32,187 bases of DNA from Ancylonema sp. (lineage: Eukaryota): NCBI GenBank assembly GCA_050230475.1, contig JBFLGF010000032.1:62001-94187 (forward strand), written 5' to 3'. Made by a program: the position numbers and the translations under genes. The notes beneath the pieces were generated by a model. That model saw only the letters and a list, made by a program, of their open reading frames with translations, was not told the origin of the DNA and did not search any database. Within the stretch, counting starts at the first letter, position 1. Each line of letters opens with the position of its first letter. Below, in pieces: positions 2,778 to 28,668 of the stretch.

Positions 2778-3293
2778 CCGGAAAATACATTATTTTGTTT
2801 CCTTTGCCATCACAAAAATATATACTAAAAATAGAGACACAACCGGTGGGTGTCAAGTCTTTACCACCACCCACCCTTTCTTTATGAGAGAACCCAACTT
2901 TTTCTAACCCGGTAATGTCCAAACGACTTCCATAAATATATTTTATTGTCGTCGAACTTATATCTTCTGTTTTTTTCCGACCCAGACACTGTATCTATAA
3001 GTAAAGAACAACATGTGTATGTTGTAAATGTGTATATTCTGAGTATGCTTCCTCTACCACTCTACAATTAACAGCACACTTCATACGCGGCACGCGTGCC
3101 GTACACTCCAATGACCCATCTATGCTTTTATATAACAATATATTGTAGCAGCAATTACATATATTTTTGGTTTCGAACACATCGATTAGTGTATTCAACC
3201 ACCATTTGAAACTTCCCTTGGGGTCGTTTTGGGCTCTCTTCTTCATACGTGAAAATCGTCCCCGTGCGGGAAAATCTAGAAAAAAAACAAAAT

Positions 3294-4981
3294 CGACAAT
3301 TTCTTTTTGGTCGACCATTCACCCTTATTAGTGACCACGCACCCTTGAAGTGGATCATGACAACCACTAAGCTGACAGGCAAGCTGGCACGCTGTGCGTT
3401 ATTGTTGCAAGAGTATGAGTTTGACGTGGTACACCGGGCACGCATCCTTAACACCAACGCAGACGGTTGTAATAGGTGCCCCTTACCAGAAGAAACAACT
3501 CTTGACCACGGAATCGATACCTTGGGAGAGACGACACCCTGCTATCTCTTCCAACCACCACCGATCTCGGCCATCTCACCCAGTTACTTCATCAGCTATC
3601 ACCAGGACTCCACACCCGAGGCGGAACCGATACTTAACATTTGGGATGAAAAACCCGTCATGCATCTGCTCAAAACCCACGAGTATGCTCCTAACCTGAG
3701 TGCCATCGAACGTGACACAGTCTACCGACGAGAATTTAAGTATAAATGGTTAGGTAATCTGTACAAGAAACCCTCTTTTGGCAAATTGTTGCTTGTTCCT
3801 TCACCACCAGAGCGCATGCCACTCATCGAAACCCTTCACAACCGTTATGGAAACTTCGGTGTCAAACGGATTCTTCACGCTTTGCAGCAAGATTATTGGT
3901 GGCATCGCATGGGTGATATGGTTATCCAGCTTATCCGTAATTGCATCGCTTGCTCTCGTTCGAAAACCCACTTCCGTCAGGGACGCACACAACTTCAACC
4001 CTTGCCCATTCGTGGATTGTTTTACCGCTGGGGCATTGATTTTTGTGGTCCTTTTCCACCAACCGCCAAAGGCAACAAGTACATTCTTGTAGCAGTTGAC
4101 CATTTCAGCAAGTGGGCTGAATTCATGGCGGTAGATAAGAGCGCCAAAACCACCTCTGGTGCAGTTTTTGAACCACATCCTAGCCCGCTTTGGAGCACCT
4201 GGGAAGTCATCACTGGCCAAGGATCGGAGTTTGAAGGTGCTTTCCACACCCTTCTCAACCAACATCATATCACCCACCGCACTGCTGGCAGAGACCACCC
4301 ACACTCGGATGGGCTGGCTGAACGCCTAGTACAAACCCTCACGTCCGCCTTGCGAAAAACCCTTTTTAGCGGGCTTCGACAGGGTACACCCCTTACCACC
4401 TGACCTATGGTCGTCACCCTTTGTTTCAAGCCAACAACCAGGACGCCGAACATGACTTTTTACCACTGGACAAAAACCTCCCCAAGTTCCTGGAGGAACG
4501 AGGTAAAGAAGTTATGCCGTTAGCTATGCGGAACTTTGCCATCGCTCAACAACGCGACCGACACCACTGCTTCAAGGTACATGACCGTTATGACAGGCCC
4601 AAGGCAACTTACCACCCCGGAGAGTTCGTCTACGTCAAACGGCAAACCAAAGGTACTTTGGACATCGCAACCCACCCGCAAATCCTGCAGATCACCAAAA
4701 TCCGACCATCAGGGAACGTGCAACTCCACGGTCGCGATGGTCGCCGCATGTGGGAACAGATGACAAATATATCTCCATGCGGTCTCACCTTGAAGGATAA
4801 GAACATCAATGTCACCCGGTTCAATAGATCTGACCCAACCTTTTGCAGAAAATGTGGGGACCGTAAGGACGGGAAAAATATGATCCTCTGTGATAATTGC
4901 AACCATGGATACCACATTTATTGCTTGTCACCACCTCTGACTAGCATTCCCAAAAGGGAGTGGTTTTGTCCGGAACATTAA
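3294..4981 (+). pseudogene. Ty3/Gypsy pol fragment 1: end of RNase H, integrase, C-terminal PHD finger (degenerate, 5' truncated)
   Basis: RNase H end FGRPFTLISDHAPLKW...NADG. Integrase Zn finger LHNRYGNFG...CIAC (second His changed to Asn), WGIDFCGP, ITGQGSEF (second catalytic Asp changed to Gly), DGLAER. Compensating frameshifts at ~4160-4205 and a deletion/frameshift at ~4365. PHD: CRKC-x11-CDNCNHGYHIYCLSPPLTSIPKREWFCPEH. Confidence 0.92.
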
Positions 4982-5140
4982 CCATTTAATATTATACGAT
5001 TGGGGGAGGGGGCACCAATCACCCGATCCTGCACCCTTGTGTTCGTCTTTCGTTTACCCTTGCTTATGTACATTATATTTCACCTGGCTCCACATCATCT
5101 GTCCGTGTGTCCCAGCCTCCGACGCAGAGCTTTCATAGCT

Positions 5141-6560
5141 AGGGGGGGGGAGTGAGATCCAGATGATGACCAAAGGCCCAATCTTGATGCTGCTCATCCA
5201 GACAAGCAGCCAAGTCATCAACCGACATCCGTCATTTTCATCGACGCAAAAAAACTATAAAAAGTCAAATTTTGCATATTTTTTCCAAAATCTGTCGATT
5301 CCTTTGTTTTTGAGAGATTTCGTCGACGGACTGTCTGCCGACTCTATCTGGCTTCTCAGCTGTCATGCGGCTAGAGATCGTTAGAAAGTAGAGTCTTTTT
5401 AATTGTTGATCCGCTTGAAAAATAGCAATTTTTGTAAATTGTCGATTTTTAGTCGTTATATCGAATTCTGTCGTTATATGAGTTTCGATCAGTCAGACGT
5501 TTGATTTGATAATTTTTTTACACTCAGTTAATCTAGAAAATTCGGTGTACCGCTTTTTAGATTTTAAGTCGGAGTATTTTGCCGTATCGACGAGTTAGTA
5601 GAGTCCCACTGCGCGCCGAGCTTTATCTCAGTCACCCAGCCAAGCGTTTAATTCGCCGCACGTGTTAAATCTAGAACTCTATAATAGACTGTCACGATTA
5701 GCTATCTAGTCGATATTCGTTTTCTACCTTAGATCAAGATAAGATCTAGATCACCGCGCGTGTGAAACGGCGCGTCGATTGTACTAAAGCCTAAGTCGCT
5801 TTCTGAACTGCCAGCTTCCGCTGTCAGTTTACGCTGTCTGAATTTCAACAACTCTTTGCAATCGCCATCTTTACAATCTCTGTGAATTCGTGTAATCTGC
5901 AATCGTCAACAATCGTTATCAAGTGTGCCGTTTCGCCTTTGATATTCGCTATGAATTTTTGCAAACTTCGCGTCGCTCCATCCAGCCGTGTAAGTTCTGC
6001 GTGAAAAATTGCCTGTTTGCTTGTGTGCGTGCTGTCGCGCATCTCAAGTATTACAAAAAGCCGTGTGCCGTTTCTCATACGCATCGTGTGAAATTCTGCC
6101 GTTGTCATAATTATCGTTACCCTTGCAAAATCGTAACCCTTGCAAGTCGTTGATTGTCAGCCGTTTTGCTGACGTCAGAAATCGTTACAATTAGCTGCAC
6201 CGTTTTGTGCGAGCTCAGTCAGACAATTCACCCTTTGAGCACCTTGCACCCGTTACAGATCTAGTGAATCGTTTTATTCACGACAACGTTTGATTCCCGA
6301 AACCAATAGTGATTGCGCATCCCGTCGCAACCAACTATCATTCATTATGCACCCTTGTAGAAATTCTATAGTTATTTGCCTTGCGTTCTCTTTATTCGTA
6401 GCTGTCACTTGTTGTGAAGTACGATAACCTGCAACGCCTGATTAACCTTAGTGTTGTTTCTAGACCTCCCACCACTAAGCGTTGAGTGCATCTCAGCTTT
6501 CGGCGAGTAGTAGCTACGGCAAACTTCGTTGATAAGTCACATACCGTGCTTGAATTACAT
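5141..6560 (+). mobile_element. Polypurine tract followed by a probable ~1.4-kb LTR/leader starting TG at 5153 (3' boundary approximate)
   Basis: AGGGGGGGGGAG|TG lies ~160 bp after the pol stop. The region is non-coding and shares blocks with 12820-14135 (CTGCCAGCTTCCGCT, CCACTAAGCGT, GTGCTTGAATT). Confidence 0.6.
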
Positions 6561-6744
6561 TCTTGTGTGGTCAGTAGGGATTCAACCTACACCAAATCTA
6601 CTCTAAACTGACCAGCGGAAGAGCTTCTTTACATCGAGGTCTTAAGAAAAGTTTACATAACATTTTTTTTTTTTCTCAATTGATTGTTTCTTATACACCA
6701 TTGTATCGACAATAAACCATAGTAGCACTATTCAGAAGTCAACG

Positions 6745-7524
6745 ATGGGAACCTACGACCATCATTTCTGGACAACCAAGGCTATTGACTCAGAGTATGC
6801 TCTGAGTGACATACAATAAGAGACATATCTTTTGCAGCTTGCTACCAACATCTCCGTCGACTACAAGATCTACAGATTTGGGCAGCTACAACTTATGCAT
6901 AAGAAAACCGAGGACGAGTTCCGACAACTCCCTCTTGACCTCAAGCGACGCCGAGACGAACATCTGGCGGTCATTCGAGTCCATCGACAACGCGAGTGGA
7001 ACAAGATTCAGCTGGTACATCTCACCACAAACTTGGCGAAAGGTGAGGTGACCTGGAAAAATCGAATGTTTCACCGATTCCAGCGAAAACTTACACCAGC
7101 ACCTCCTGTAGCACAACCAATCCCGGCGTACACCAATATGTCGGTAACTAGTACTCCTCAATACCTGCAGATGACCAAGGAATAACACCAAAGATATGTG
7201 CAGGAAGCAACATATGCCAGAGGTGTAGGTTTCTTCAATTCGCTCATGAGTAAGGAAAAGGTGAAACCACAAGAAGAGGTATCGACAGCCCTCACCAAAA
7301 AGTGTGTCACATTCTCACTTGTCGTTGCAAGTCAAGCACCAGGTCTTGTCATCCTTTCACCACCCAAGGTAGAAGAGAAGTGCGCCGTATGTTTTCAACC
7401 AGGTCATATTTGGCAGGATTGTCCCCGTGATCACCTAACCAAAGAAGAGCAAGCGGGCATCCCAGTGGTCTTGCAGAGCAGGGTACCAGCAATTCACTCC
7501 ACAAAACACCAAGCCGGTCATTAA
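6745..7524 (+). pseudogene. gag-like ORF with CCHC zinc knuckle
   Basis: One frame from ATG 6745 with in-frame TAA at 6817 and 7183. CAVCFQPGHIWQDC fits CX2CX4HX4C. It lies directly upstream of the protease. Confidence 0.75.
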
Positions 7525-7555
7525 ACCAGATGCACGCATCACCACCAACTGGACG

Positions 7556-8553
7556 GTGCCTGTCATTGAAAAGAACAAAAAGTTTTTTTCCATAGAAGGA
7601 GTCGAACCCACAGGAGACATAGTTTTGGACACCGGGTCAGGAGATTGCATGATCGGGTTAACCATGGCGAAACAACTCGGCATCACCAAGGCAGACTTAG
7701 ACCCTCGTGAAGAGTACCTCACCTCGTCAGGACAAAACAACACATCTTTGGGAGTCACCAAGAGGGATTACGAGATCACCATTGGACAGGGAAAGTTTAA
7801 AACCACAGTTCCAGTCCGTCTCACTTTGTCACCCTCTGACAAGTACTCGATCCTCTTGGGCAATTCGTTTATTGTCCCCATCGGAGGAATCGTCGATAGT
7901 TGGGGACACCGTTTCCACCACCGAGTGGATTGGGAAGTAAAAGGGGACAGGATGGTATCTGTCACTATCATCACCTATGGGCTCAATGCTACTCATAAGT
8001 TTTACTTGGAAACTTATGGAGTAGTCTACATGAACCAGGGACTTTCACACGACATCACCTACACCACAATGGACACCTTTCTGAAGAACGATGACGAAAC
8101 CTTGTTCGCCACGAACGAGGATGAAGACATTCTTGCAGAATTTGAGTTTTTGGTGGCACAAGAGGGATATGAGCACAGTATTGCCTCAGCGACACCATCA
8201 CGTGATCCAACCACTTTGCCTGTTTATAACCTAGAGACTCAAGAATGGGAACTTGACACCATTCATTATTTGGCAACCCGCAAACACTCCGAGATCCTTG
8301 ATGCACACAAGCTCAAGCTTTTTACCGCAACCAAAAGTCTAGCACAAGTCAACGAGGCAAATGCAACCATTAGAGTCCACAAGCTTAGGTTGGATAGCAG
8401 CATCATGATCCAACATGACATCGACGTTGTGTGCCGACACCCCGTTCCACCCTTGCATTCTAAATGGCAGGGATTACCAATTCGAGACGCGGTTCCGATC
8501 ACCCCTCGGTACGACGTTCGTTTTAACCCTGGCGCATTGCAACGTGGACTTAA
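7556..8553 (+). pseudogene. Retrotransposon aspartic protease plus linker leading into the DNMT domain
   Basis: IVLDTGSGDCMIG active-site motif and downstream ILLGNSF. The frame stays open up to the MITE at 8554. Confidence 0.85.
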
Positions 8554-9127
8554 GAGCATCTCTTATGGTCGCCCGATTCGACTGGCTTGATTTGCGAAAC
8601 GTGACGTCAAAAATTGTACTTCGTGACGCAAATCAAGCTGCCTGATTTCAAGTTGTGTACGGCCGGGAAATTCTGGAAATCGAATTGGGAGGAGGCTGCC
8701 TTACGGGCAGCGCGATTTTGATTTGAATTTGGTGCCACGGTGGCAGTCACGAAACGTTGCCTGACGGATTTTGGCAGATTCGGCGACCTTTCGAACAACG
8801 AACGGTCGGACCAGCGAAACGATTCGCCGGGTCCTCAAGGTTGTTGCCACGCTGGCGATACGAACATCGCTGGCAGCCTCCGATTGGCTCGTCAAATCAA
8901 ACCGGGACATGAGCGAATGTGATTCAAAGTCCCGATTCAGGCCTTGAATCGGGACTTTGAATTACATTTGCTCATGTCCCGATTGTGATTCGGCACGTGT
9001 AAAATCACATCGGTCCGAATTGGGATCCCGTAAGGATTGCTTTCCCGATTCCCAAGTCTGATTCGGACTTGCGCCGTGTTCTGCCGCGAATCACGCCAGT
9101 CGAATCGGGCGACCATAAGAGATGCTC
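8554..9127. mobile_element. 574-bp PIF/Harbinger (Tourist-like) MITE inserted in the retrotransposon polyprotein
   Basis: 39-bp TIR GAGCATCTCTTATGGTCGCCCGATTCGACTGGC(T/G)TGATT with one mismatch. TAA TSD at 8551-8553 and 9128-9130. Confidence 0.93.
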
Positions 9128-9128
9128 T

Positions 9129-9810
9129 AACGTGTGGGATCTTTTTAAAGGAACCAGTTGTGCAAGCCTGACAATCGTCGTAAACGCCAACTACAAGTGC
9201 GGTGCCTACATCAACAACGACATCAACGTCGACGCACGATCCGTGACACGAGCCTTGTTGCCCAAGATCCAAGCACGTCATCCAGGACAACACCCTTCCA
9301 CAACAATTCGAGGATTTGACACTAGATTTTTTCACAATATTTCGCAAATTTCAAATGCTCATCTTGATAGGTTCATCGCAGACAAATGACCTATCGATTT
9401 TATTTTTGCAGGATGGGAGTGCCAAATGGTTAGCAAGGCGGGTAACCAACAGGGGTACAAAGACGAACGGTTCCCATACCCCATACTTCTTCGACCTCAT
9501 CCGCTGCATTAACCACTTGATCAAAGTCCAGCCTTACCCACCCATCTTCGTCTTGGAGAACATTTACCCTTTCGGTGAGTTTCCGAAGGAGATCCAAGAC
9601 ACCACAGTCCTCATCAAGTCATTTCTCGGATACCCCGCAGTTGTCGATGCATGCAGTATCGGCAGTAATGCTCACCGAGTACGATGTCTCTGGACGAACT
9701 TCATACCACCTCATATTCTGGAGTTGGCGATTCCGGCCACTCCACCGTTGAAACCCTTGACTAAGATCCTTGATCTGCACCACAAACCAATAGTCGTCAC
9801 TACAAAGGTC
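9129..9810 (+). pseudogene. C5-cytosine DNA methyltransferase domain (motifs I-VIII) inside the Gypsy polyprotein
   Basis: Motif I LNVWDLFKG. Motif IV region PIDFIFAGWECQMVSKAG (Cys codon 9420-9422). Motif VI FVLENI (Glu 9556-9558). Motif VIII VDACSIGSNAHRVRCLWTN. Lesions: TGA at 9387-9389 and a 7-bp duplication at 9473-9486. Motifs IX-X not seen. Confidence 0.85.
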
Positions 9811-11391
9811 CATGCAGCGTTGTCGTTTTCGGCAGCTTCTCTCACCCCTGCAGAATCACCTGCACCCTCTAGCTTCTCTACTGCTGCCCCTGCAACCAAC
9901 TTAACAGCTGGATCCACCTCTGCCTTCGCCACTATACTAGATCCGCTCGCAACAGTCGACATCTGGTCAATTCATCTTGTCCTAAACTTCCTTAAACACC
10001 ATCGTTACGCTCCGGATTCTACAGCGGCAGCTCGCGACAGAGTGTATCGGAGGGCATTAGGGTATCGTTGGCTGGGTGGGAATGTATATAAAATCTTTCC
10101 TGGTGGTATTATGATGTTGGTTCCCTCTCTCTCTGCGCGTTTAGACTTGATCTTGCGTACGCATCGAGACATGGGGCATTTTGGTATCAATCGGGTAACT
10201 AAATTGTTGCAGAAGAACTACTGGTGGATTAAGATAGAAGCAGACGTGAAGGGAGTCATTGGGAGTTGTTCCTCTTGTGTGCGCTCCAAAGCCACTTTTA
10301 GAGACCCTCGCACCGAGTTGCAACCCCTCCCTATTCGAGGACTTGGGTACAGGTGGGGAGTTGATTTTGCTGGTCCATTTCTTGTGACTAAACGTGGTAA
10401 TAAGTATGTGCTAGTTTTCATTGAGCATTTTACCAAATGGGTAGAACTTGTGCCATTGCCAGATAAATCTGCTGCTGGCACTGCATGGGCTTTGCTTGAG
10501 TTTGTTTTGAGTCGTATGGGAGCCCCTGCTGAAGTTGTAACAGATCAGGGTTCCGAGTTCAAAGGTGAGTTTCAGACCCCTCTATCCCACTGTGGGATAG
10601 ATCATCGCCTTGCCTCCCGTGAGCACCCTCAAGCAGATGGCCTTTCGGAACGCATGGTTCAGACCATGAAGCAAGGTCTGCGGAAGACTCACCTGGAGTG
10701 TGCCACTAACCGAGATCTGGTGTTGCCATACGTGGCAATGGGCTACCGGATGACGCAGCAGAAGGCTCTAGGGTATTCCCCCTTCTACATCCTCTATGGG
10801 CGACATTCCATCTTCCCTGCCAAGATTCAGGAGGTGGAGCATGAGCCGCTACCGGACCTGGATGACCCTGAGGCGGTCAGACTTTTCATTGATGCAAGGA
10901 GCCAAGTGTTCCGCCAGGTTCTTCCCCTCGCTATGAGGAACCTAGCCATTGCACTGCACCGTGTTAAGACGCATTTTCGTCTCGTGAACACTCCTCCCTG
11001 GGATAGGGAGAGGGAGGCTGTGGGGGCCGGGGATTTTGTGCTAGTTAAAAGGCTAACATTGGCCTCCCTGGACGTCCCCACACGTCCTCACATTATACAA
11101 GTCGTGCGACTGAAGGAGAGTGGAGTCGCGGTGCTTCAAGAGCAGGATGGAGCTCAGATAGAGGAGCAGCAGAAAAATGTGGCACCCTGTAGTTTGCCTA
11201 TTCTGGATAATAAGATATACCTAGAAAGATATTTCAGTGGAGATAAGACCAGTTGTCGGGAGTGTGGCAGCAAGAAGAATGAGGAAGCGATGGTACTTTG
11301 TGACAGGTGTCAGCATGCATTTCATACTTGGTGTTTGACACCCCCTCTACGATATATTCCACTATGAGCATGGATCTGTCCTTACCATTAA
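9811..11391 (+). pseudogene. Ty3/Gypsy integrase 2 with C-terminal PHD finger
   Basis: THRDMGHFG...CSSC zinc finger, WGVDFAGP, VVTDQGSEF and DGLSER (catalytic triad intact, 34 residues between D and E), GYSPFYILYGR. PHD: CREC...CDRCQHAFHTWCLTPPLRYIPL*AWICPYH* with premature TGA at 11365 and the likely natural stop at 11389-11391. Confidence 0.92.
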
Positions 11392-11516
11392 GGCCTTGCT
11401 CACTAGGGTGGTGTGTGTGTTTTGGGGGGGGAGTAGTGTGTTTGGAGTTGAGAGGCCTGGCGTGGAGGCATGTATTTTTGGACCTAAGCTTGTGTGCATT
11501 TCATTTTCACATGCTT

Positions 11517-11735
11517 AGGGGGGGGGAGTTGAAACATTTGGTGATGTATGATGGATGATTGATGGATAAAGACTTGTGAAGTATAAGGAAGTTGTGTTGG
11601 GGCCCAAAGGGGTAATAAGCTTGAGGAGTTGTAAAAAGACAAGTAGATAACACCAAAACTAGGAGTTTTGGGTGTATAATATACTGTGAGATGGTGTAGT
11701 TATCTTTGCTAGTAACGATCCTACTCGATACGACA
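11517..11735 (+). mobile_element. Polypurine tract and start of a 3' LTR (TG at 11530; end uncertain)
   Basis: AGGGGGGGGGAGT|TG lies ~125 bp after the integrase stop, the same arrangement as at 5141. The following sequence does not resemble 5153 onward. Confidence 0.55.
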
Positions 11736-12616
11736 AACTATTGGTACTGAAGGGCGTGCTCGTACTGGCTGAGGAGGCTGCACCATGGCTAGAGGAGGTG
11801 GAGGCTCAACATCAAACGACTGCGGAGTAGACGGCAAAGGGCTGGCCAAAGGCTGTCTGGCTAGACACTCTCCAAAACGGTTGCCGCTGATTGCATCCGC
11901 CTCCACGATCACTGATCCATGGCTGCATCCCATACCACGCGTGATCCAACTGCGTCCCTAGCTACGACTCTTGCAGATTGGCGAAGGGTTGCGTCCTCTG
12001 CAGAATGGTGGTCGCTGAGGATGGAGAGGGGAGGCTGGCGCTGAAGCGGCTGCAGGTGACTTCCAAGGGGGTACAACCCAAGGCTTTGAGGCTCGGGGTG
12101 GACGCCAATTACTCGGGCCCTATTTTTAGCTCGCGGCGCCAACGAAGGGTCGTACTGTGTTAAAAAAAAATGCTTGACCCGCAATAGGATCCGTATGTGT
12201 AATAAGTTGGGGTGTCGCTATGGACGTGACAATTGTAAAATGTAGCTTGCCAGATGCTAGATGCAAAAATCGATATGCAATGATGCAAATGGGCACACAA
12301 GTGTCCAGGATAGGATGCAGATATAAACAACCCAACAACAACAAAGACTACTGGCTGTCTAAGATGCCAGATAAGATCAACACACAGTGTTTTTTTTTTT
12401 TTTTTTTGAAGTTTTGAATCCAAGTAATATAACAAGTTCACAGATTTACAGATTTCACAGATTTCTGCACAAATTACAGATTTTGCAACCTGCCAATTCT
12501 ACACGAAACATTTCTTCACAAAATTCACATAATTCTGTAAAACGACACGTAAGTTGACAACTTTCCGTTTTAGATTGTACATATAAATTGGATATTTAAT
12601 TTGTATATATAAACTT

Positions 12617-14741
12617 GGAAAAACTTAACACGCAATTTTCCTTAACATCATGCAGTTGTCAAATCGAGTACCGGCTAATAAATTGGCCGATCGAAACTTG
12701 TCGTAAAAAAGAATCGGATGACGATATTGCCACATCAGCGAAACGAAACATGAGGTTTGGTACCTTCCCTTTCCACTCAAATCGGCTTTCACTTCACCCT
12801 ATACTCCGCCAGCGAGCCATGTCATGACGCTAGAGAGCGCTAAGGCATAAACCCCTATAAATTGATAAAAAACCCTTCTAGATTAATACTCCTCTACAAC
12901 GAGAGTAATCAATACAACGATATCTAGAATTAGTACTTTGCAAATAAAAATAGTGAAGTACGATTTTGTTCGACTCGAAAATAACGCGTGGCGTATTTTC
13001 CAAAGCCTAGAATCCAGCATTTTCAACAAATAGTTGCGTGTCGATTTTTGTAAATCACAAGTCACTTTCGACTTGTCGATAATCCCGGCGATTAAATCCA
13101 GCCGTAGAACTAGAGAAATATCTCGCGCCGTTTTCATCGTAGCGTCGAGATTAAATTGTATTGTTATAGAAGCGAGCCTGTCGTTATCTTCGATAGACTA
13201 ACTCTAGTTAACTCGGCCGGTTAGCACCGCGCAACAACTTTTGATAAAAGACAAATTGTACTTTCAGATCTGCCAGCTTCCGCTATCAGATTGCGCTCTT
13301 AAGAAATTCTTCAACAATCTTTGTGTAATTCTGAATCCTGTGCAATTCTGTGTATTTGTATCCCTTCGCTTACGCGACTTCGCAACGTGCTCGTTTCCTG
13401 TCTGAGCGTGACATCCGTCATCCAGACTGTAAATTGTCCAAATTATCATTTGAAACTTGTGTGTGTGTGTGTGTGTATGTTCAATCCATCTGAATCTGTT
13501 GTTGACGCTCTTTCTGAGCCAGCCTTGTAATCGAGTGTAATTTCTTGCATCGAGTCGCTGACGCTCTCTCTGAGCCACTAAGCGTGTGTGTATGTGCTTG
13601 AATTCTGTCGATTTGCTTACGTTCGCTCCGAACCAGCACTTTCATTGGTTTTATTATCGTGTTTGCTGTCGCTCGCACCGAGCCAGCAATTGTTGTTTAC
13701 ACCTGTCTGCTGACGATTTTTCTAAGCAAGCATCTCTTATCGACGCGCCGTCGATACTTTGACTTTCGCACCTTGATAATCCGCACCAAATTACATTGTT
13801 TGTGTTACAGTATTTTCTACGACTTTAGTACTGTGGTACATCTGTCAGCTTGCCCTCAACTTTAAGTAGTGAATTTCACCAGACCGGTGAGACGTGTGAT
13901 ATATATAATATTGATATCTCAGCAGAGACTCAATTTGCAATACTACTTAGTGCGAGCAGCCAGACCACCAATCCCACTAGAGACCCTTCGACCACCTCAG
14001 ACTATCATCGATACTGGCGCAGTCAACATCATTGCCACATCACCACGAGCATTACCACATGCATCATTCTGAGAAACATCATTACAAAAGTGTCAAGTAC
14101 AACATCCCGGGCGGCCAAATCCAAACCGCACGTCAGCCTTTCACTGCGGGCTATATATCATCCGCACCCTTCAATTTATGCGATCTGCGCGAATTCGCAA
14201 CAAAAATGAAAGCGGAGATACGCTGTGTCATCCTTCTTTCAAATTATGTTATTTTAATCTTATACGACAATTTTTTGACGCTAGAATACATCACAACAAA
14301 AGAAACAGTAAAATGGTTCGAAAACGCGCGCAACCAGCATAACAAGAAGGATTAAAGTCTTTTGTTGATTTTTATATTCTGAATGTACACAAGAATGTCA
14401 TCGCAACAAATTCATCGTAAAACTTTAGAGAATGGTGGGCTTTGCACTCGATGCGGATAAATCGTGGCAGCCAAGGAAGGAAGTAAAGAAAGCGTCGCGC
14501 GTAGTATCGGGAGTGGCAGTGGGTCGGGTGACGCTTATTGACGTACAGCGGCGATTTGCCACTCGCCTATGTCGCGATAAAGCGAGATACTACCAATATC
14601 AAAGACAAAACGATTTCACTCGTGGTACCAAGAGACTACCGGGTGATTTGACGACAAGTTTCGAACGGCCAGAACACCTGCCGGTACTCGATTTGACGAC
14701 TGCATGCGGTTAATGAAAACTGTATGCTGTTAAGTTTTCCC
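12617..14741. mobile_element. Non-autonomous Mutator-like element (MULE) containing a nested LTR-like insert
   Basis: ~90-bp imperfect TIRs beginning GG(A/G)AAAACTTAACA and including GTCAAATCGAGTACCGGC and TCGAAACTTGTCGT. Perfect 9-bp TSD TATAAACTT at 12608-12616 and 14742-14750. Confidence 0.88.
12820..14135 (+). mobile_element. Probable solo LTR related to the 5153 LTR/leader
   Basis: TG...CA ends with flanks GCCA/GCCT. Shares motifs with 5750-5860 and 6470-6560. Removing it brings GCCACATCAGCGAAACGAA and CTGCGGGCT to about the spacing seen in the related MULE at 22155-22258. Confidence 0.55.
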
Positions 14742-17377: not shown

Positions 17378-19405
17378 TCAAGACCGACTGCACCCGTCGT
17401 CGGCGGGCAGGATGGGGGGCATGAGTTTGGCGACCGCGTCAAACTTGGTGTGCGAGTACTTCTTGTGCACCGCCGTCAGACTCCCCTCCCCGCTCCTCTC
17501 CTGCAGGCCCACCATCATCTGCACACACCCCCTCAGCTCCGCCTCCGACAGCTGGGCGTGGCGCTGCAACGTGGGCGTCCATGCCGGCAGTATGCCAGCT
17601 GTCCGTCTGGCGGTGAGCACGGCCGCTGCCGCCACATGGGAGGGCGAGAAGTGGAGCATGGCGTAGTCGGGCAGGCAGAGCTCGGTGAGGACCCACGCCA
17701 CCTGGGTCACCTTGCGGTCTGCCTTGGCCGCCTTGAGGAGTCGGTGTGTGAATACGTAGGGGGTGGGGACGGTGAGATTGAAGTGGAGGGTGTTGAGCAT
17801 CAGCTTCTCCATCCCCAGGATCTGGTCCTTGGTGTACGCGTTGTCGGAGATGTACACGAAGTCCTTCACCTCGGGCGCCCAAATCTCTTCGTACTTGGAG
17901 GCCAGGAGCATGGCCGTCACCCCGACCAGCTGCAGGTTCTTGCGGGTAACCGTGCACAACGACAGGAAGCGGTCGATGAGGTTGGCGGTGAGGTACAGGG
18001 TCTCGGGTAGCAGCTTGAACTTGAGGTGCACCTCCACCAGCCAGTCCAGCAGACTGGCGCGCATCTTCTCGTTGATCTCCGACTGCAGGCACATGTAAGA
18101 GGACGGCACGAGGCTGGACGCCTCCGACTTGCGGTAGAAGGAGTAGATGTCTGCCACGTATTCAGCCACCGCCAGCGGATCACGGACATCCTCCGCGTCG
18201 ATCTCGTCCAACGCGTCACACGCCTCCGCATCGTGCATCTCCGCATCCATGCAACCCACAGCCTCCTGAAACAAGAGTCAGACCATAACAAAGGTCAATC
18301 ATTGCACAACAGAAGGAATGGAATCCTGGCACTTGGGCAGCACATTCACAGCTCTACAGTTCTACAGCTGTCCCATAACTTTGCAAGAAGCAAGGGATGA
18401 TGCAAGACAAGAAGCCGGATCCCACCCCACAGCAGAAGAGCACATGACAGCTGTTCCCATGACAGCTGTACAGCTGTCCATGAACGACAACCCCAAGCAG
18501 AAGGACATGCCAGGTATCCCCACCTCTGCTATGTTTGTGAGTGTGGCCGTCATCCCCTGCTCCTTGATGACAGCCTCCGCAGCCTCCTCTGTGGCAGCCT
18601 TCGCAGCGACCATGGCTGCCCGTTGCGCGCGGGTCATAATGGTGCTCGATCGCCCGCCCCCGCCCCCGCCCCCGCCCGTGCTGCCCGTTTGGGACTGGGA
18701 CTTGGTAGCAGCAGCGGGTTCACATTGACCACTCGCCGCCACTCGGACAGGCAACGAACGCTGAGGCTTCTGAAGAAAAGACAAGGAAAGGAAGGAGGTG
18801 ATGAGGAGGCGAAAGCAGGTGGTCGGAGACGTACATCATGTATAAGAATGAGGAGGAAGAGAATGCGAGAGTGCATTCCCATGCGGGTACCCCGAAGTAC
18901 ATAACCTCACGACCCTTTACACAGCGTATCCAGGACTCGTGCTACAGCTGGCTTGCGGAATGTCGTGCGTAGGGTTGAGGGAGGAGCAGATGTTCACCTT
19001 CTGGACATCTTTGCTCTGCTGGACATTGCTCAAATTTGTGCCAAAAGCTCGCCTGGGAACGCGGACACCCAGGAGACAGCTGTCAGCATATGCTATGAGC
19101 TGTCATGAGCTAACACCACACACTCTGAATGCCATTGCCATCAATCATACAAGCAGATGACCAGCGCGAAGGAAACCATGGCTTCGCAGCCACGGCATAT
19201 CTGTCAGATGAATGCCACTATGGCCTAACATGCAACCGCATGTGACTGCATCTGATACTGACCATTTGAAATCAAACTTATTTACACACAACTTACTCGG
19301 TGATGTCTTTGCCCGAACGGCCAGGAACTACTTTGTCGAGGTTACCGACGTCCGCGAGTGCACGTCTGCCTCCGGCATTGTTGGCTGCGCGAAGTCCAAG
19401 AGCTC
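17378..19405 (-). CDS. CYCB: B-type mitotic cyclin, multi-exon. Supported exons: 19405-19297, 19052-18998, 18769-18524, 18265-17378. Start codon further upstream (candidate ATG 19789, mini-exon 19789-19783).
   Basis: Destruction box RRALADVGN. Cyclin box MRASLLDWLVEVHLKFKLLPETLYL...QLVGVTAMLLASKYEEIWAP...FNLTVPTPYVF. GT-AG sites have compatible phases, GC3 is high, and no lesions were seen. An additional small exon near 19160-19200 cannot be excluded. Confidence 0.93.
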
Positions 19406-23562: not shown

Positions 23563-23844
23563 TGGTTTTAATGATGAAGGCGCAGGCACTTACGCGCCAG
23601 TATTAATTGGCGCTTGGCGCATGTATTTCGAGCGGAAATGCTTCTTGTCTGCAGGGCAGTTAAACGTCCTGGTCACTGCGCATTATTTAATTTTATTATT
23701 GTTTCTTGTCATTGCATTTGCTGTATTGTACTGCGATTTGTTTCATGTTGCGTACCTTCCGTGCCTTTAGACGAGATTTTCTTTGGAATCCATAATTGTT
23801 TTGATTTTTTAACAATGTGGTCAAATACTCGAATATTCGACTAT

Positions 23845-24601
23845 CTTGGAGCGGAAGTCATCGGAACATTTGCGCTCGTCCTTAATGGCTGCGGGGCGGT
23901 CGTTGTTGACAAACTGTCCGATGGTGCATTGACACATGTCGGCGTGTCTTGCTTTGGGTTGGTTGTGATGACCATGATTTATGCCACGGGGCACATCTCT
24001 GGCGCTCACTTGGACCCAGCCGTCACATTCGCATTCTCTGCCGTGCATCGCTTCCCCTGGCCGTAGGTGAGTAGGCCCTATATCGGAGCTGCCGTATCCT
24101 AGCGAGCTTGCCGGCCCTATATCAGAGCTGCGAGTATATACTGGTTATTGTTGAATGTTCACCATGAAGTTTCAGGTTTCAGGTTTCAGGTATCAGGTTC
24201 AAGGATTCGGGATTCAAACAAAACAAAAATAAAAAGTTTAAGAAGAAGCCAGGTCCACTCCCGTTTTTTTTTTTTAAAAAAAAAAAAAATTAAATTTCCT
24301 TCATTTATATATATTTTTATGAAAATGCTAACGATTCAGGGTTTCAATATCTAATCAGAAACTAGTTCCAATGCCCAGAATACTGATCCGTTTGCGAAGT
24401 TCTCATTCTTGGCAGGTCCCCTACTACATGGCCTCCCAAATCATAGCCGTCTTGCGTTTCTCTCGCATCATCTTCCACCCGGTAGTCCACCTTGGCCCCA
24501 CGTTGCTAGCTAGCATTCCCTTCCAGTCTCTGACCCTCGAGTTCTTCCTAACCGCCTTATTGATGGATGTCATCTCCTTTGTTGCAACCAAAAGCAGGGC
24601 G
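23845..24601 (+). pseudogene. NIP: NIP-type aquaporin (NOD26-like intrinsic protein) two-exon relic: 23845-24066 and 24416-24601
   Basis: GAEVIGTFALVLNGCG...MIYATGHISGAHLDPAVTFAF...FPWP*|VPYY...LEFFLT..LMDVISFVATKSRA|GT. First NPA box reads DPA, TAG stop at the exon end, small deletions, and no second-NPA exon found. Confidence 0.88.
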
Positions 24602-24724
24602 GTGAGCTGGTGGGGGGGGGTTTGGTTGAGTTGGCGCCGCTGAGTTGGCACTTTTCAGCTGGGTGGCAGGCAGCATGAGTCGTCAAGACTTTGGAGGTGC
24701 CAGCTGGCACTTTCGCATGCCAGC

Positions 24725-25128
24725 TAACATGAACTCATTGTGCGCATGTCATATACCTCTCTCCTGTACCCTAAGTAACATGAACCGACCGTGCTCATGT
24801 CATTTACCTCACTCCAATACCCTAAATGACATGAACTGACCGTGCTTATGTCATTTACTCCACTCCTATACCCTTAATCACCAGAAGTAAATGTGCGCAT
24901 GCATATACCCCTCTCTTGTACCCTAAATCACGTGAACTAAATGTGCGCATGTCATATACGCCCCCTGTACCTTGAATAACATGAACCGACCCTGCGCATG
25001 TCATATATCCTCTCCCGTACCCTAAATAACATGAACCGACCGTGCGCATGTCATTTACTCTTCTTCGGTACTTTAAATCACTTGAACTAAATGTGAGCAT
25101 GTCATATACCCCCCTCTTGAACCCTAGA
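24725..25128. repeat. Minisatellite of eight ~51-bp units
   Basis: Consensus close to TAACATGAACCGACCGTGCGCATGTCATATACCCCTCTCCTGTACCCTAAA, with a variant unit starting TCAC.TGAACTAAATGTG. Confidence 0.9.
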
Positions 25129-25220: not shown

Positions 25221-26211
25221 GTGAACATAGTACTATTCCATAGCTTTACAACAAGAAATGAAATGAGGAGCCAAGTGCTTGGAATTGCGAATTAAGCTTC
25301 ACCAAGCTAATGACGAAACTTAAAGATTTTGAATTTACTTCTTTTCTTCGTACTCGCCGAATCGATCGGACGAAATTGGTACAAAAGATGAGAGATGATT
25401 TCCGATGTCGAGGTCGGTGATGAAGCGGACGTTGGAATGGTTGCGGAAGTACGCAAGGCCCCTCTTGTGATCGTAGTGAACGCATACAAACTCTACGTAA
25501 CGAGAGCCGGGTTCGTCGAAGGACGCCTGAAGAACCGCCGCGCTTTCGTTCCACGCCTCCATTGAAACCTCGCACGTGCCATCATAAATGATGACGCTCA
25601 TCACTTGGTTTCCGTTGCGGGTCGAATGTAGTTTTTGGATGTCGCCGATACAAACGTTGACGTTGTACAACTGGGGGAAAAAAAAACCGAAAAAATGTTA
25701 AGGTCGGATGAAGGATTATAAAGACATGAGAAATATGACCCATCAAACAAATCACGAAGAAGAACGTTGTCATATTTCCCACGAAAAAAGCCTAAAGAAT
25801 TGTTATGGTCGGAAATACAAATTAGACACATTTTTGAAGCGTGAACATCGAACAAACCCGAATGTAGAAGGTTGTCATCTCCTCCATGCACATTATACTA
25901 GTCCATTGACTATTTATGGATTCATTTGCAAGTAATTGTTCGGAGAATGAAATAATCTTACCCCCTCTAGAGTCTTGAACTCCTTCAACGATGGGTTTGC
26001 TTTGCGCTCAACGAATTCGATGGAGGGCGGGCATGGCAACACAAAAATGTCTTCGTTGATTTTGACATCGACCTTTGATCCCCATGGGTTCCACCTACAA
26101 CCCAAAAAATATGTGTTAGAGTATTTCCGAGAAATCGAAAGGGAAGCAAGTAATACAAGCACACGAGATACAAGACGAGAGACAAGCACAACACAAGCAC
26201 ACAAGATACAA
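25221..26211 (-). repeat. Left arm of a ~1-kb inverted duplication (partial copy of the OB-fold-like gene)
   Basis: Reverse complement of 27221-28225. The ORF translations of both arms are near identical (WNPWGSKVDVKINE..., NVNVCIGDIQKL...MEAWNESAAVLQ). Confidence 0.92.
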
Positions 26212-26910
26212 ATCTCTTTCTGAAAAAAAAAATCAAACAATTCCAACTTGAAGTAGCTAACATACAGCCAAAGAATATCTTATGTTGTTCGGACATGATG
26301 ACTTGTCCAAGAATGCCTTTTTTTTTTTTTTTTTTTTTAATTGGGAAACAGATTTGCATTTTCTGAACATCGATGATGCAGATAGAGTAGTATCCCATGC
26401 ATCCCGCAACAACAACACCTGTGAAGGTGCAATTTCAATCTCGTACTACGCATGTCATCGTCGAAAGTGTTCGTTTAGGTCATAACTTTGAATTGTCACC
26501 ATTTCCATTCGTTTTGTAAAGTGCATAAGATTTCAAAAAACGTCACCCGGTGCTGCAAAAAAAAAAAAAAAAAAAAAAAAACTTCTGGCAAAAACTATGC
26601 AGCCATATTGCTCTGATATGCCAACACACGAGTAGGTGTCCTCACAACGCACTTGTGATTGCAAAATTGATTCCTATTAGGTGAAACCCCCCAGACCTAA
26701 GATGGAGCCAGCTACTCAAAGCCAAGATAAATTCAAGGTACTTTGTTCTTCTATTTATATGTCGAACAACCATTTCATATGTTTCGACCTCCGAGCTTTC
26801 AAATTCCTCGATTTCAACTTGAGTTGTTGGTTTTTTGAATTCGAAATCTTTGCTTTTTTGACGCTTTGATTCGACAGGATCGTATCCTAACAAAAAAAAA
26901 AAAGTTCTTT

Positions 26911-28125
26911 ATGCAGCCCCTTGTGGTGACCCTCGCGACATGTGGTGAGGAGGCTTTGCACAAGCAAATATTCATCAAAGTAGACCACAAGTTCCCGCCG
27001 TTTGTGGTAAAAGTGAATGACGTGTGGCTTACCGTGGCTCAACTCGAGGACACCGACGTGAACGACAGCCACGTTTTCTTGAGGCGGGAGTTTCCCGGGA
27101 AAAACGAGAAAGAGATGGGCGAAGCAAAGGCGTGGATAGCTCTGATATCCATCCCCGGAAGTAAGCAAATAGTAAACGTAGAATTTACAGTTATGTAAGT
27201 GAACATCATCACCAGTTGAATTGTATCTTGTGTGCTTGTGCTGTGTTTGTCTCTCGTGTACTGTATCTCGTGTGCTTGTATTACTTGCTTCTCTTTCGGT
27301 TTCTCGGAAATACTCTAACACATATTTTTTGGGTTGTAGGTGGAACCCATGGGGATCAAAGGTCGATGTCAAAATCAACGAAGGCATTTTTGTGTTGCCA
27401 TGCCCGCCCTCCATCGAATTCGTTGAGCGCAAAGCGAACCCATCGCTAAAGGAGTTCAAGACTCTAGAAGGGGTGAGATTATTCTATTCTCCGAACAATT
27501 ACTTGCAAATGAATCGATAAATAGTTAATGGACTAGTATAATGTGCATGGAGGAGATGACAACCTTCTACATTCGGGTTTATTCGATGTTCACGCTTCAA
27601 AAATGTGTATAATTTGCATTTCCGACCATGACAATTCTTTAGGTTTTTTTCGTGGGAAATATGACAACGTTCTTCTTTGTGATTTGTTCGATAAGTCATA
27701 TTTCTCATGTCTTTATAGTCCTTCTTCCGACTTTAACATTTTTTTGGATTTTTTTTTTCCAGTTGAACAATGTCAACGTTTGTATCGGTGACATCCAAAA
27801 ACTACCTCCGACCCGCAACGGAAACAAGGTGATGAACGTCATCATTTATGATGGCTCGAGCGAGGTTTCAATGGAGGCGTGGAACGAAAGCGCGGCGGTT
27901 CTTCAAACGTTCTTCTACAAACCCGGCTCTTGTTACGTGGAGTTTGTATGCGTTCACTACGATCATAAGAGGGGCTTTGCGTACTTCCGCAACCATTCCG
28001 ACGTCCGCTTCATCACCGACCTCGACATCAGCAATCATCTCTCAACTTTTGTACCACTTTCGTCCGATCGATTCGTCCGATCGATTCGGCGAGTACGAAG
28101 AAAAGAGGTAAATTCAAAATATTAA
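26911..28125 (+). pseudogene. Spliced gene of unknown function with OB-fold-like (RPA/ssDNA-binding-like) segments. Exons ~26911-27194, 27340-27472, 27763-28125.
   Basis: Phase-compatible GT-AG junctions (AT|GTAAGT...TAG|G, GGG|GTGAGA...CCAG|TTG). TRNGNKVMNVIIYDGSSEVSMEAWNESA resembles the OB-fold D-x-S/T-x-x-hydrophobic-x-x-x-x-W pattern. A 13-bp duplication at 28060-28085 shifts the C-terminal frame. Confidence 0.45.
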
Positions 28126-28576
28126 AGTTTCGTCATTAGCTTGATGAAGCTTAATTCGCAATTCCAAACACGTGGCTCCTCATTTCATTTCTTGATGTTA
28201 AGATATGGAATAATACAATGTTCACCATCACGGTATTTGCCATTGCATACAATTAGTTCCTTTGCAATACAATTGGCCTCTTTGATGTTTTTGTTGTTGT
28301 TGTTGTTGTTTTTGTGGTTTGATGTTTAACTATGGTGTTGCAATAACGTGGTGCAGATTTACTGCCGTGGACAACTACCTCAAGGAAGCTCAAAATCCAC
28401 ACCAACGAACTCAGAAATAGAGAGTTTGGGTAGAAATCGAATACGTCGGCGAATGCAGTGTGCAAGCTCTCCAAAAGGGGGGGGAAGAGTTGAGAGCAAA
28501 AGCCTGTTTCCAAGATGGCGATAAGCTTTGTATGCCACTATTTCGAGAACTGCATATTTTTGTTTTCTCGTTATTC

Positions 28577-28668
28577 CACTCGCCGAATCGATCGGACGAA
28601 ATTGGTACAAAAGTGGAGAGATGATTGCTGATGTCGAGAACGGTGATGAACCGGACGTCGGAATGGCC
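28577..28668 (-). repeat. Third partial copy of the 3' end of the OB-fold-like gene, fused to an unrelated exon-like segment
   Basis: Encodes HSDVRFITVLDISNHLSTFVPISSDRFGE, matching 25352-25440 and 27992-28092. Confidence 0.8.

Follow-up and report, generated by a model that had tools for sequence, protein, structure and literature searches.

The closest described system is KnitGypsy-Dnmt3 of Klebsormidium nitens, in which, according to the published account, the Pol ORF of a Gypsy element encodes, besides RT and RNase H, an intronless, non-permuted Dnmt3-related DNA methyltransferase (DNMT) (de Mendoza et al. 2018, PMC5890265). The same element corresponds to the 'streptophyte Gypsy-DNMT3' named in a preprint (bioRxiv 10.64898/2026.05.21.726589). 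In yeast, KnitGypsy-Dnmt3 gave no methylation, a result which its authors describe as inconclusive, and the only retrotransposon DNMT reported in that paper to methylate CG, again in yeast, is SymbioDIRS-Dnmt3 of Symbiodinium (PMC5890265). In this article, we describe a further element, which is located in a stretch of 32,187 nucleotides of Ancylonema sp. (contig JBFLGF010000032.1); the term window is used below for the whole of this stretch.

With KnitGypsy-Dnmt3 as published, the element shares, through its relatives, the presence of DNMT with RT and RNase H in one Pol ORF (RT in four of the 11 longer relatives, RNase H as well in two of the 11), and there is a hint of DIRS-like split repeats, which are named in the legend of Fig. 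4 of PMC5890265. When compared with the published description of KnitGypsy-Dnmt3, the window copy differs in being dead, in lacking the DNMT tail, RT, and RNase H, and in belonging to a divergent subfamily, in which Glu precedes the catalytic Cys. The relatives of the window element also end in a PHD finger, a term absent from the main text of PMC5890265; the PHD finger and motif IV may be shared by the two systems. SymbioDIRS-Dnmt3 resembles the window element in carrying its methyltransferase, a Dnmt3 domain according to PMC5890265, in Pol and differs from it in possessing a DIRS tyrosine recombinase, whereas the window element has an integrase of the rve type along with a protease. Gypsy-7a_cRei of Chlamydomonas is likewise described as a Gypsy polyprotein with a PHD finger, but DNMT is not among the domains given in its figure legend (bioRxiv 10.1101/2022.06.16.496473). 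In the literature searched, outside of which most subscription journals lay, no description was found of the subfamily of the window element or of a PHD-bearing Gypsy-DNMT3.

The window element is very probably a dead, repeatedly damaged Ty3/Gypsy copy, in the polyprotein of which protease and RT were separated by a DNMT3-like cytosine methyltransferase domain (Table 1). A Gypsy element carrying a DNMT is of an already described kind (PMC5890265), and the window copy is a pseudogene of a divergent subfamily. The protease-RT-RNase H-integrase order of Ty3/Gypsy was found in the intact relatives P0022 and P0023, and from protease to PHD finger the window is collinear with P0028 and P0022, apart from one gap; its integrase is 47% identical to those of P0022 and P0023. 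The gag frame contains two stops (TAA at 6817 and at 7183), and either a lesion or a programmed shift could account for the change from the gag frame to the protease frame near 7500. Sibling copies were compared in four public runs (X1 to X4) from two studies, with X1 and X2 representing a single sample that is possibly related to the source of the window. All covering sibling contigs of X1, X2, and X3 have a different base at position 11365, where the PHD finger is broken in the window. A tRNA scan of the window found no tRNA, and no primer-binding site was identified. The CG o/e of the element is 0.73 in gag-protease, 0.96 in DNMT, and 0.60 in the integrase, and this slight depletion tells against our interpretation.

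Table 1 Features of the DNMT-bearing element and its surroundings in the window, with the evidence for each
Feature	Coordinates	Strand	Evidence
Upstream element of the same clade, 3'-terminal part: RNase H end, integrase, PHD, polypurine tract	3270..5152	+	Pfam, homology
Terminal repeat 'A' of very high copy number, end part directly preceding gag	6500..6606	+	X1 depth 405,795 in bin 6500-6680 vs about 18,000-39,000 in gag and protease
Gag-like frame with CCHC knuckle (7381-7422)	6745..7524	+	Translation; weak Pfam zf-CCHC_2, E 0.059
Aspartic protease, DTG at 7628	7592..7870	+	Pfam Asp_protease_2, E 1.4e-6, above cut-off
Protease-DNMT linker	7871..8553	+	Last 110 codons match natural proteins continuing into DNMT; 45% identity to P0003 residues 3-111
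Left target-site copy TAA	8551..8553	+	Sequence; empty site in sibling contigs
MITE of 574 bp; inverted repeats at its termini, 40-bp hairpin (8900-8984) inside	8554..9127	.	Inverted-repeat analysis, folding
Right target-site copy TAA	9128..9130	+	Sequence
DNMT first piece, spanning motif I (F-K-G, 9144-9152) through motif IV (GWECQ, with Cys at 9420)	9131..9479	+	34-37% identity to P0022, P0023
Premature TGA	9387..9389	+	Relatives have Gly here; directly before PIDFIFAGWECQ
7-bp tandem duplication CCCATAC (at 9473 and 9480), frameshift	9473..9486	+	Sequence; absent in X1, X2, X4 siblings
DNMT second piece: motif VI (EN, 9556), motif VIII (R-x-R, 9676-9684), target-recognition start	9487..9813	+	45% identity to P0023 residues 634-745
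In-frame junction zone; DNMT tail, RT, RNase H missing	9814..9897	+	Homology gap vs relatives; X1 depth 30,612 to 6,629 across
Integrase: zinc-binding part 10132-10293, core 10348-10629, C-terminal part	9940..11253	+	Pfam Integrase_H2C2, E 6e-13; rve, E 1e-11
PHD finger, broken by TGA at 11365	11254..11391	+	Pfam PHD, E 7e-8
Polypurine tract (11517-11528) and TG-starting terminal repeat, right edge approximate	11517..11735	+	X1 depth 27,882 in bin 11568-11748, then 1,870

Natural proteins confirm the proposal of the initial annotation that protease and DNMT once formed one polyprotein. Relatives were collected by an HMMER search of 1.84 billion proteins, which yielded ten matches including eight true relatives (the matches to P0004, a repeat protein, and P0007, a WD40 protein, were dropped as spurious), and by a profile search of proteins of 386-2000 aa, in which the best 7989 candidates were scored and 11 further relatives were obtained, all with a DNA_methylase domain. 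The DNMT-bearing relatives that were looked up are ENA or Logan records. P0002, P0003, and P0006 extend in one ORF from the linker before the MITE to DNMT motif I, with 48-52% identity across the MITE site to the X-read-through of the window. The longer relatives agree in six of 11 cases: Pfam located the protease upstream of DNMT in the same ORF in these six (several below the curated cut-off), RT downstream of DNMT in the four mentioned above, and the full run protease-DNMT-RT-RNase H-integrase-PHD in one ORF in P0022 and P0023. The ORF of P0060 additionally encodes a Gag-like N-terminus. As had been anticipated, ORF-based annotation misses the DNMT of the window: neither of the two ORFs gave a DNA_methylase match, and the read-through reached an E value of only 0.0017, which is too weak to pass the cut-off.

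The relatives reaching from protease to RT form a sister clade and are only 35-40% identical to the window within the DNMT, which tells against the interpretation given above. For the window's own subfamily, which is known from fragments of 137-206 aa that show the protease-side link alone, we infer that RT followed the DNMT. In a tree of 19 rows, the window groups with P0002, P0003, P0006, and P0008 and is separated from the long-Pol relatives (91/88, not starred as strong support); strong support was obtained for only two of the 16 inner branches of this tree, and for the fragments P0005 and P0009 the assignment to groups is guessed. Word-index protein searches with the second DNMT piece retrieved no relatives (12 and 21 candidates), and no related DNA loci were found in the viral contigs and JGI metagenomes searched.

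The DNMT is separated from the protease by a MITE, whose inverted-repeat arms comprise about 44-49 nt with 92-95% complementarity, the first base being 8554 and the last 9127. Its folding is well beyond that of shuffled sequences (z -16, none of 100 shuffles as good). The insertion is short and non-coding, with terminal inverted repeats and a 3-bp TAA/TTA duplication, which are the features of Tourist-like (PIF/Harbinger) MITEs; we take the TAA duplication to fit the 3-bp TAA/TTA target sites of this group. The X1 depth inside the MITE is about 3000, which indicates that the MITE is present in other contigs as well. Excision of the MITE together with one TAA (577 nt) does bring the protease frame (7439) into register with the VWDLF frame at 9132, as had been noted initially. 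An open frame after excision is weak evidence when taken alone, because, when 500 arbitrary excisions of 577 nt were placed with their starts at 8300-8799, 165 of them likewise kept 7439-9386 open, and the real support is provided by other copies of the element. A MITE-free join from 8550 to 9128, skipping 577 nt, is present in two contigs of X1 and two of X2, that is, in one sample, and loose ends at 8553 that continue into the sequence behind the MITE were found in three contigs of X2 and in one contig of X3, which belongs to the second study. An assembly artefact was rejected on the basis of the target-site duplication and of the empty sites in siblings.

Two further lesions are located within the DNMT domain. 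At the first, TGA at 9387 was thought to replace the Gly of GPID; among 66 proteins, 24 matched a motif-IV pattern and represent 12 clusters, and all 24 have Gly at this position. P0003 reads GPIDF, and one loose end in X4 implies G. At the second, the 7-nt shift indeed leads to the frame holding ENI (9556) and HRVRCLW (9673). These 7 nt are missing in 16 sibling contigs of X1 (depth 24255 of 25199), in seven of X2, and in one of X4, with X3 having no cover there. At the DNA level, the MITE and the duplication are thus both absent from siblings, and the reading initially proposed for these lesions survived this comparison.

Polypurine tracts followed by TG-starting terminal repeats occur at 11517-11531 and at 5141-5154. 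The terminal repeats of the window copy do not match each other: comparison of 4980-6750 with 11390-12400 gave a best local score of 33, located at the polypurine tract, and shuffled sequences scored up to 31. This mismatch weakens the notion of one intact element and leaves the family assignment unaffected. Twenty-nine contigs of X1 (consensus agreement 0.62) link the end of the repeat before gag (about 6606) to the start of the repeat at 5153, with no whole element seen; this join hints at DIRS-like split terminal repeats of the type A-coding-B-A-B. The upstream element (3270-4981) is 5'-truncated, and its integrase, which has a frameshift near 4360, is 49% identical to the downstream integrase. 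Between the upstream polypurine tract and gag (5153-6606), an AT-richer middle part at about 5240-6260 may be another insertion, and 5799-5835 resembles 13261-13297.

Several further features were observed elsewhere in the window. On the minus strand, a single GC-rich frame without interruption (17378-18277) encodes the Cyclin N and Cyclin C domains, and another exon may be located upstream near 18362-18835; this cyclin is presumably of the B type, and an exact look-up of it returned no match. A NIP-like aquaporin fragment at 23779-24066 has DPA in place of the first NPA motif and NIP2-1 as best solved match, and is likely a pseudogene or a single exon. Together with the cyclin gene, this fragment points to a host of the plant lineage. 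Inverted copies of a repeat of about 1 kb with 92% identity are located at 25221-26214 and 27218-28225, with a fragment at 28578-28666. A tandem array of about eight units of 50-51 bp occupies 24699-25126, and a long (AT)n microsatellite of about 390 bp occupies 2390-2777.

The initial view that three reversible lesions hide the DNMT proved incomplete, as a fourth lesion is present near 9814 and more stops occur in gag and in the PHD finger. Homology to P0023 ends at 9813 (residue 745) and restarts near 9898 (residue 1438); with respect to P0022, the window jumps from residue 525 to residue 1293, homology restarting at about 9898-9940, and the gap comprises about 690-770 codons. An intact DNMT domain has about 329 residues, of which the window retains about 229 and has lost about 100 (motifs IX-X). 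No part of the window matches the missing DNMT tail or RT, and RNase H is absent from this element. Because the join at the junction is in frame, motif VI and the integrase are found in one 706-codon ORF. The gap could have arisen either by a deletion or by a recombination event that joined the integrase half of another family.

In the latter case, the 5' half (repeat A, gag, protease, and DNMT) and the 3' half (integrase, PHD finger, and 3' repeat) would derive from two families that became fused in frame near 9814, either through recombination or through template switching, an origin to which we assign slightly less than an even chance and which would modify our interpretation of a damaged DNMT-bearing Gypsy copy and not replace it. 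The fourfold-degenerate sites of the two halves differ (A+C 0.63-0.65 vs 0.45; chi2 23.1, p 4e-5), but the upstream integrase is also mildly unlike the 5' half (p 0.04), so that composition may drift within one element. A change point in strand composition near 10040, which is stronger than those of 200 out of 200 permutations, also argues for two sources, although it lies about 200 nt away from the homology junction. In X1, the 5' bins outside the MITE have depths of about 15,000-39,000, compared with about 7,000-13,000 for the 3' half, i.e., about three- to four-fold lower, but these are summed contig depths, which do not represent a copy number. Finally, siblings link repeat A to the 5153 repeat, and the window copy ends in an unlike repeat.

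Motifs I, IV, VI, and VIII of C5 methyltransferases have established functions, and their key residues, i.e., Phe-x-Gly (I), the catalytic Cys (IV), Glu-Asn (VI), and Arg-x-Arg (VIII), are present in the window pieces and in the relatives. The order of the motifs is non-permuted, unlike that of DRM (I-IV-VI-VIII-X in the relatives and I-IV-VI-VIII in the window), and a DRM-type permuted enzyme was rejected. The second DNMT piece is cut before motifs IX and X, which are absent from the window and kept in intact relatives. With the profile A4, composed of relatives and the window pieces, the best solved match was human DNMT3B (E 2.7e-8), aligned through motifs IV, VI, and VIII. With the profile A5, and with P0025 alone, bacterial M.HhaI was placed just above DNMT3, the match being strongest around motif IV. 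The nearest Atlas models to the relative P0005 were DRM2-like and DNMT3 (TM 0.70-0.77), with bacterial ones at 0.62. The window DNMT pieces alone gave no meaningful match to a solved structure, the Atlas leads were all under 0.9, and an AlphaFold2 model of P0018 based on seven sequences was unusable (pLDDT 33). As judged from these comparisons, the DNMT domain of the window clade likely has Dnmt3 affinity.

The catalytic Cys is conserved in the window and in 11 of the 12 cluster representatives. The residue preceding it is Glu in seven, Gln in four, and Pro in one of the 12 representatives, and the window has Glu-Cys; the Pro-Cys dipeptide of active C5 cytosine methyltransferases was not found in the window. 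The middle residue of motif I is Lys in the window compared to Gly, Ala, or Ser in the aligned relatives. It is conceivable, but rather unlikely, that in this clade the DNMT fold is catalytically weak or dead and has been retained to bind DNA or RNA. The replacement of Pro-Cys by Glu-Cys or Gln-Cys in 11 of the 12 representatives and the deviant motif I of the window's subfamily (WEPFGG in P0002, P0003, and P0006) point in this direction; however, Cys, Glu-Asn, Arg-x-Arg, and Phe-x-Gly have been conserved in relatives with an identity of only about 50%. The yeast data reported in PMC5890265 bear on both sides of the question: KnitGypsy-Dnmt3 showed no detected activity, but human DNMT3B was silent in the same assay.

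There is hardly any chance that the DNMT piece is an accidental neighbour, whether a host gene fragment or a separate insertion, behind the protease: an open frame after excision easily arises by chance (see above), but sibling contigs join both sides of the MITE exactly, natural proteins including intact relatives keep both sides in one ORF, and the composition of fourfold-degenerate sites is alike in protease-linker and DNMT (p 0.87). The initial claim that the DNMT is not a chance neighbouring insertion was therefore upheld.

With respect to the function of a DNMT3-like domain in a Gypsy polyprotein, the polyprotein would be packaged together with Gag, and the protease would release the DNMT inside the particle. 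Having entered the particle along with RT, the DNMT could methylate cytosines of the element's new cDNA in cis before integration, and the insert would arrive pre-marked. This cDNA-methylation model is that of the discussion and the authors' reply to reviewers in PMC5890265, and by analogy it has, in our estimation, an equal chance of holding or failing for the window clade. The PHD finger, judging from its domain type, may direct insertion by recognizing histone tails; for a Gypsy element of Chlamydomonas, a role of the PHD finger in the choice of the insertion site has been suggested. After insertion and silencing, a copy such as that of the window would have gained the MITE, the stops, and the duplication, with no order implied.

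A more far-reaching proposal, which we regard as improbable, is that RT-less elements were amplified in a streptophyte Gypsy lineage, encoding no enzymes other than the protease and a DNMT3-like domain in which Glu or Gln precedes the catalytic Cys. Five related clusters end a few residues after motif X (five of five representatives; P0015-P0019, P0031, P0034, and P0047), with GWQCQ as motif IV and GWPCQ in P0019. The proteins of this clade are of the Gag-protease-DNMT type and about 1370 aa long, and their ORF contains no RT. In the window element, reads cover the Gag-protease-DNMT half about three times as deeply as the integrase half. If the proposal were true, the methyltransferase would be a cargo from which the element profits in the particle even when it has no RT of its own.

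The occurrence of a host's own silencing enzyme aboard retrotransposons is rare. What is gained here is range and test material and no new principle: P0022, P0023, and P0060 are intact natural relatives that are usable for an assay, and the locus points to an unusual motif IV with Glu-Cys or Gln-Cys and adds a divergent, abundant subfamily to the retrotransposons that carry such an enzyme.
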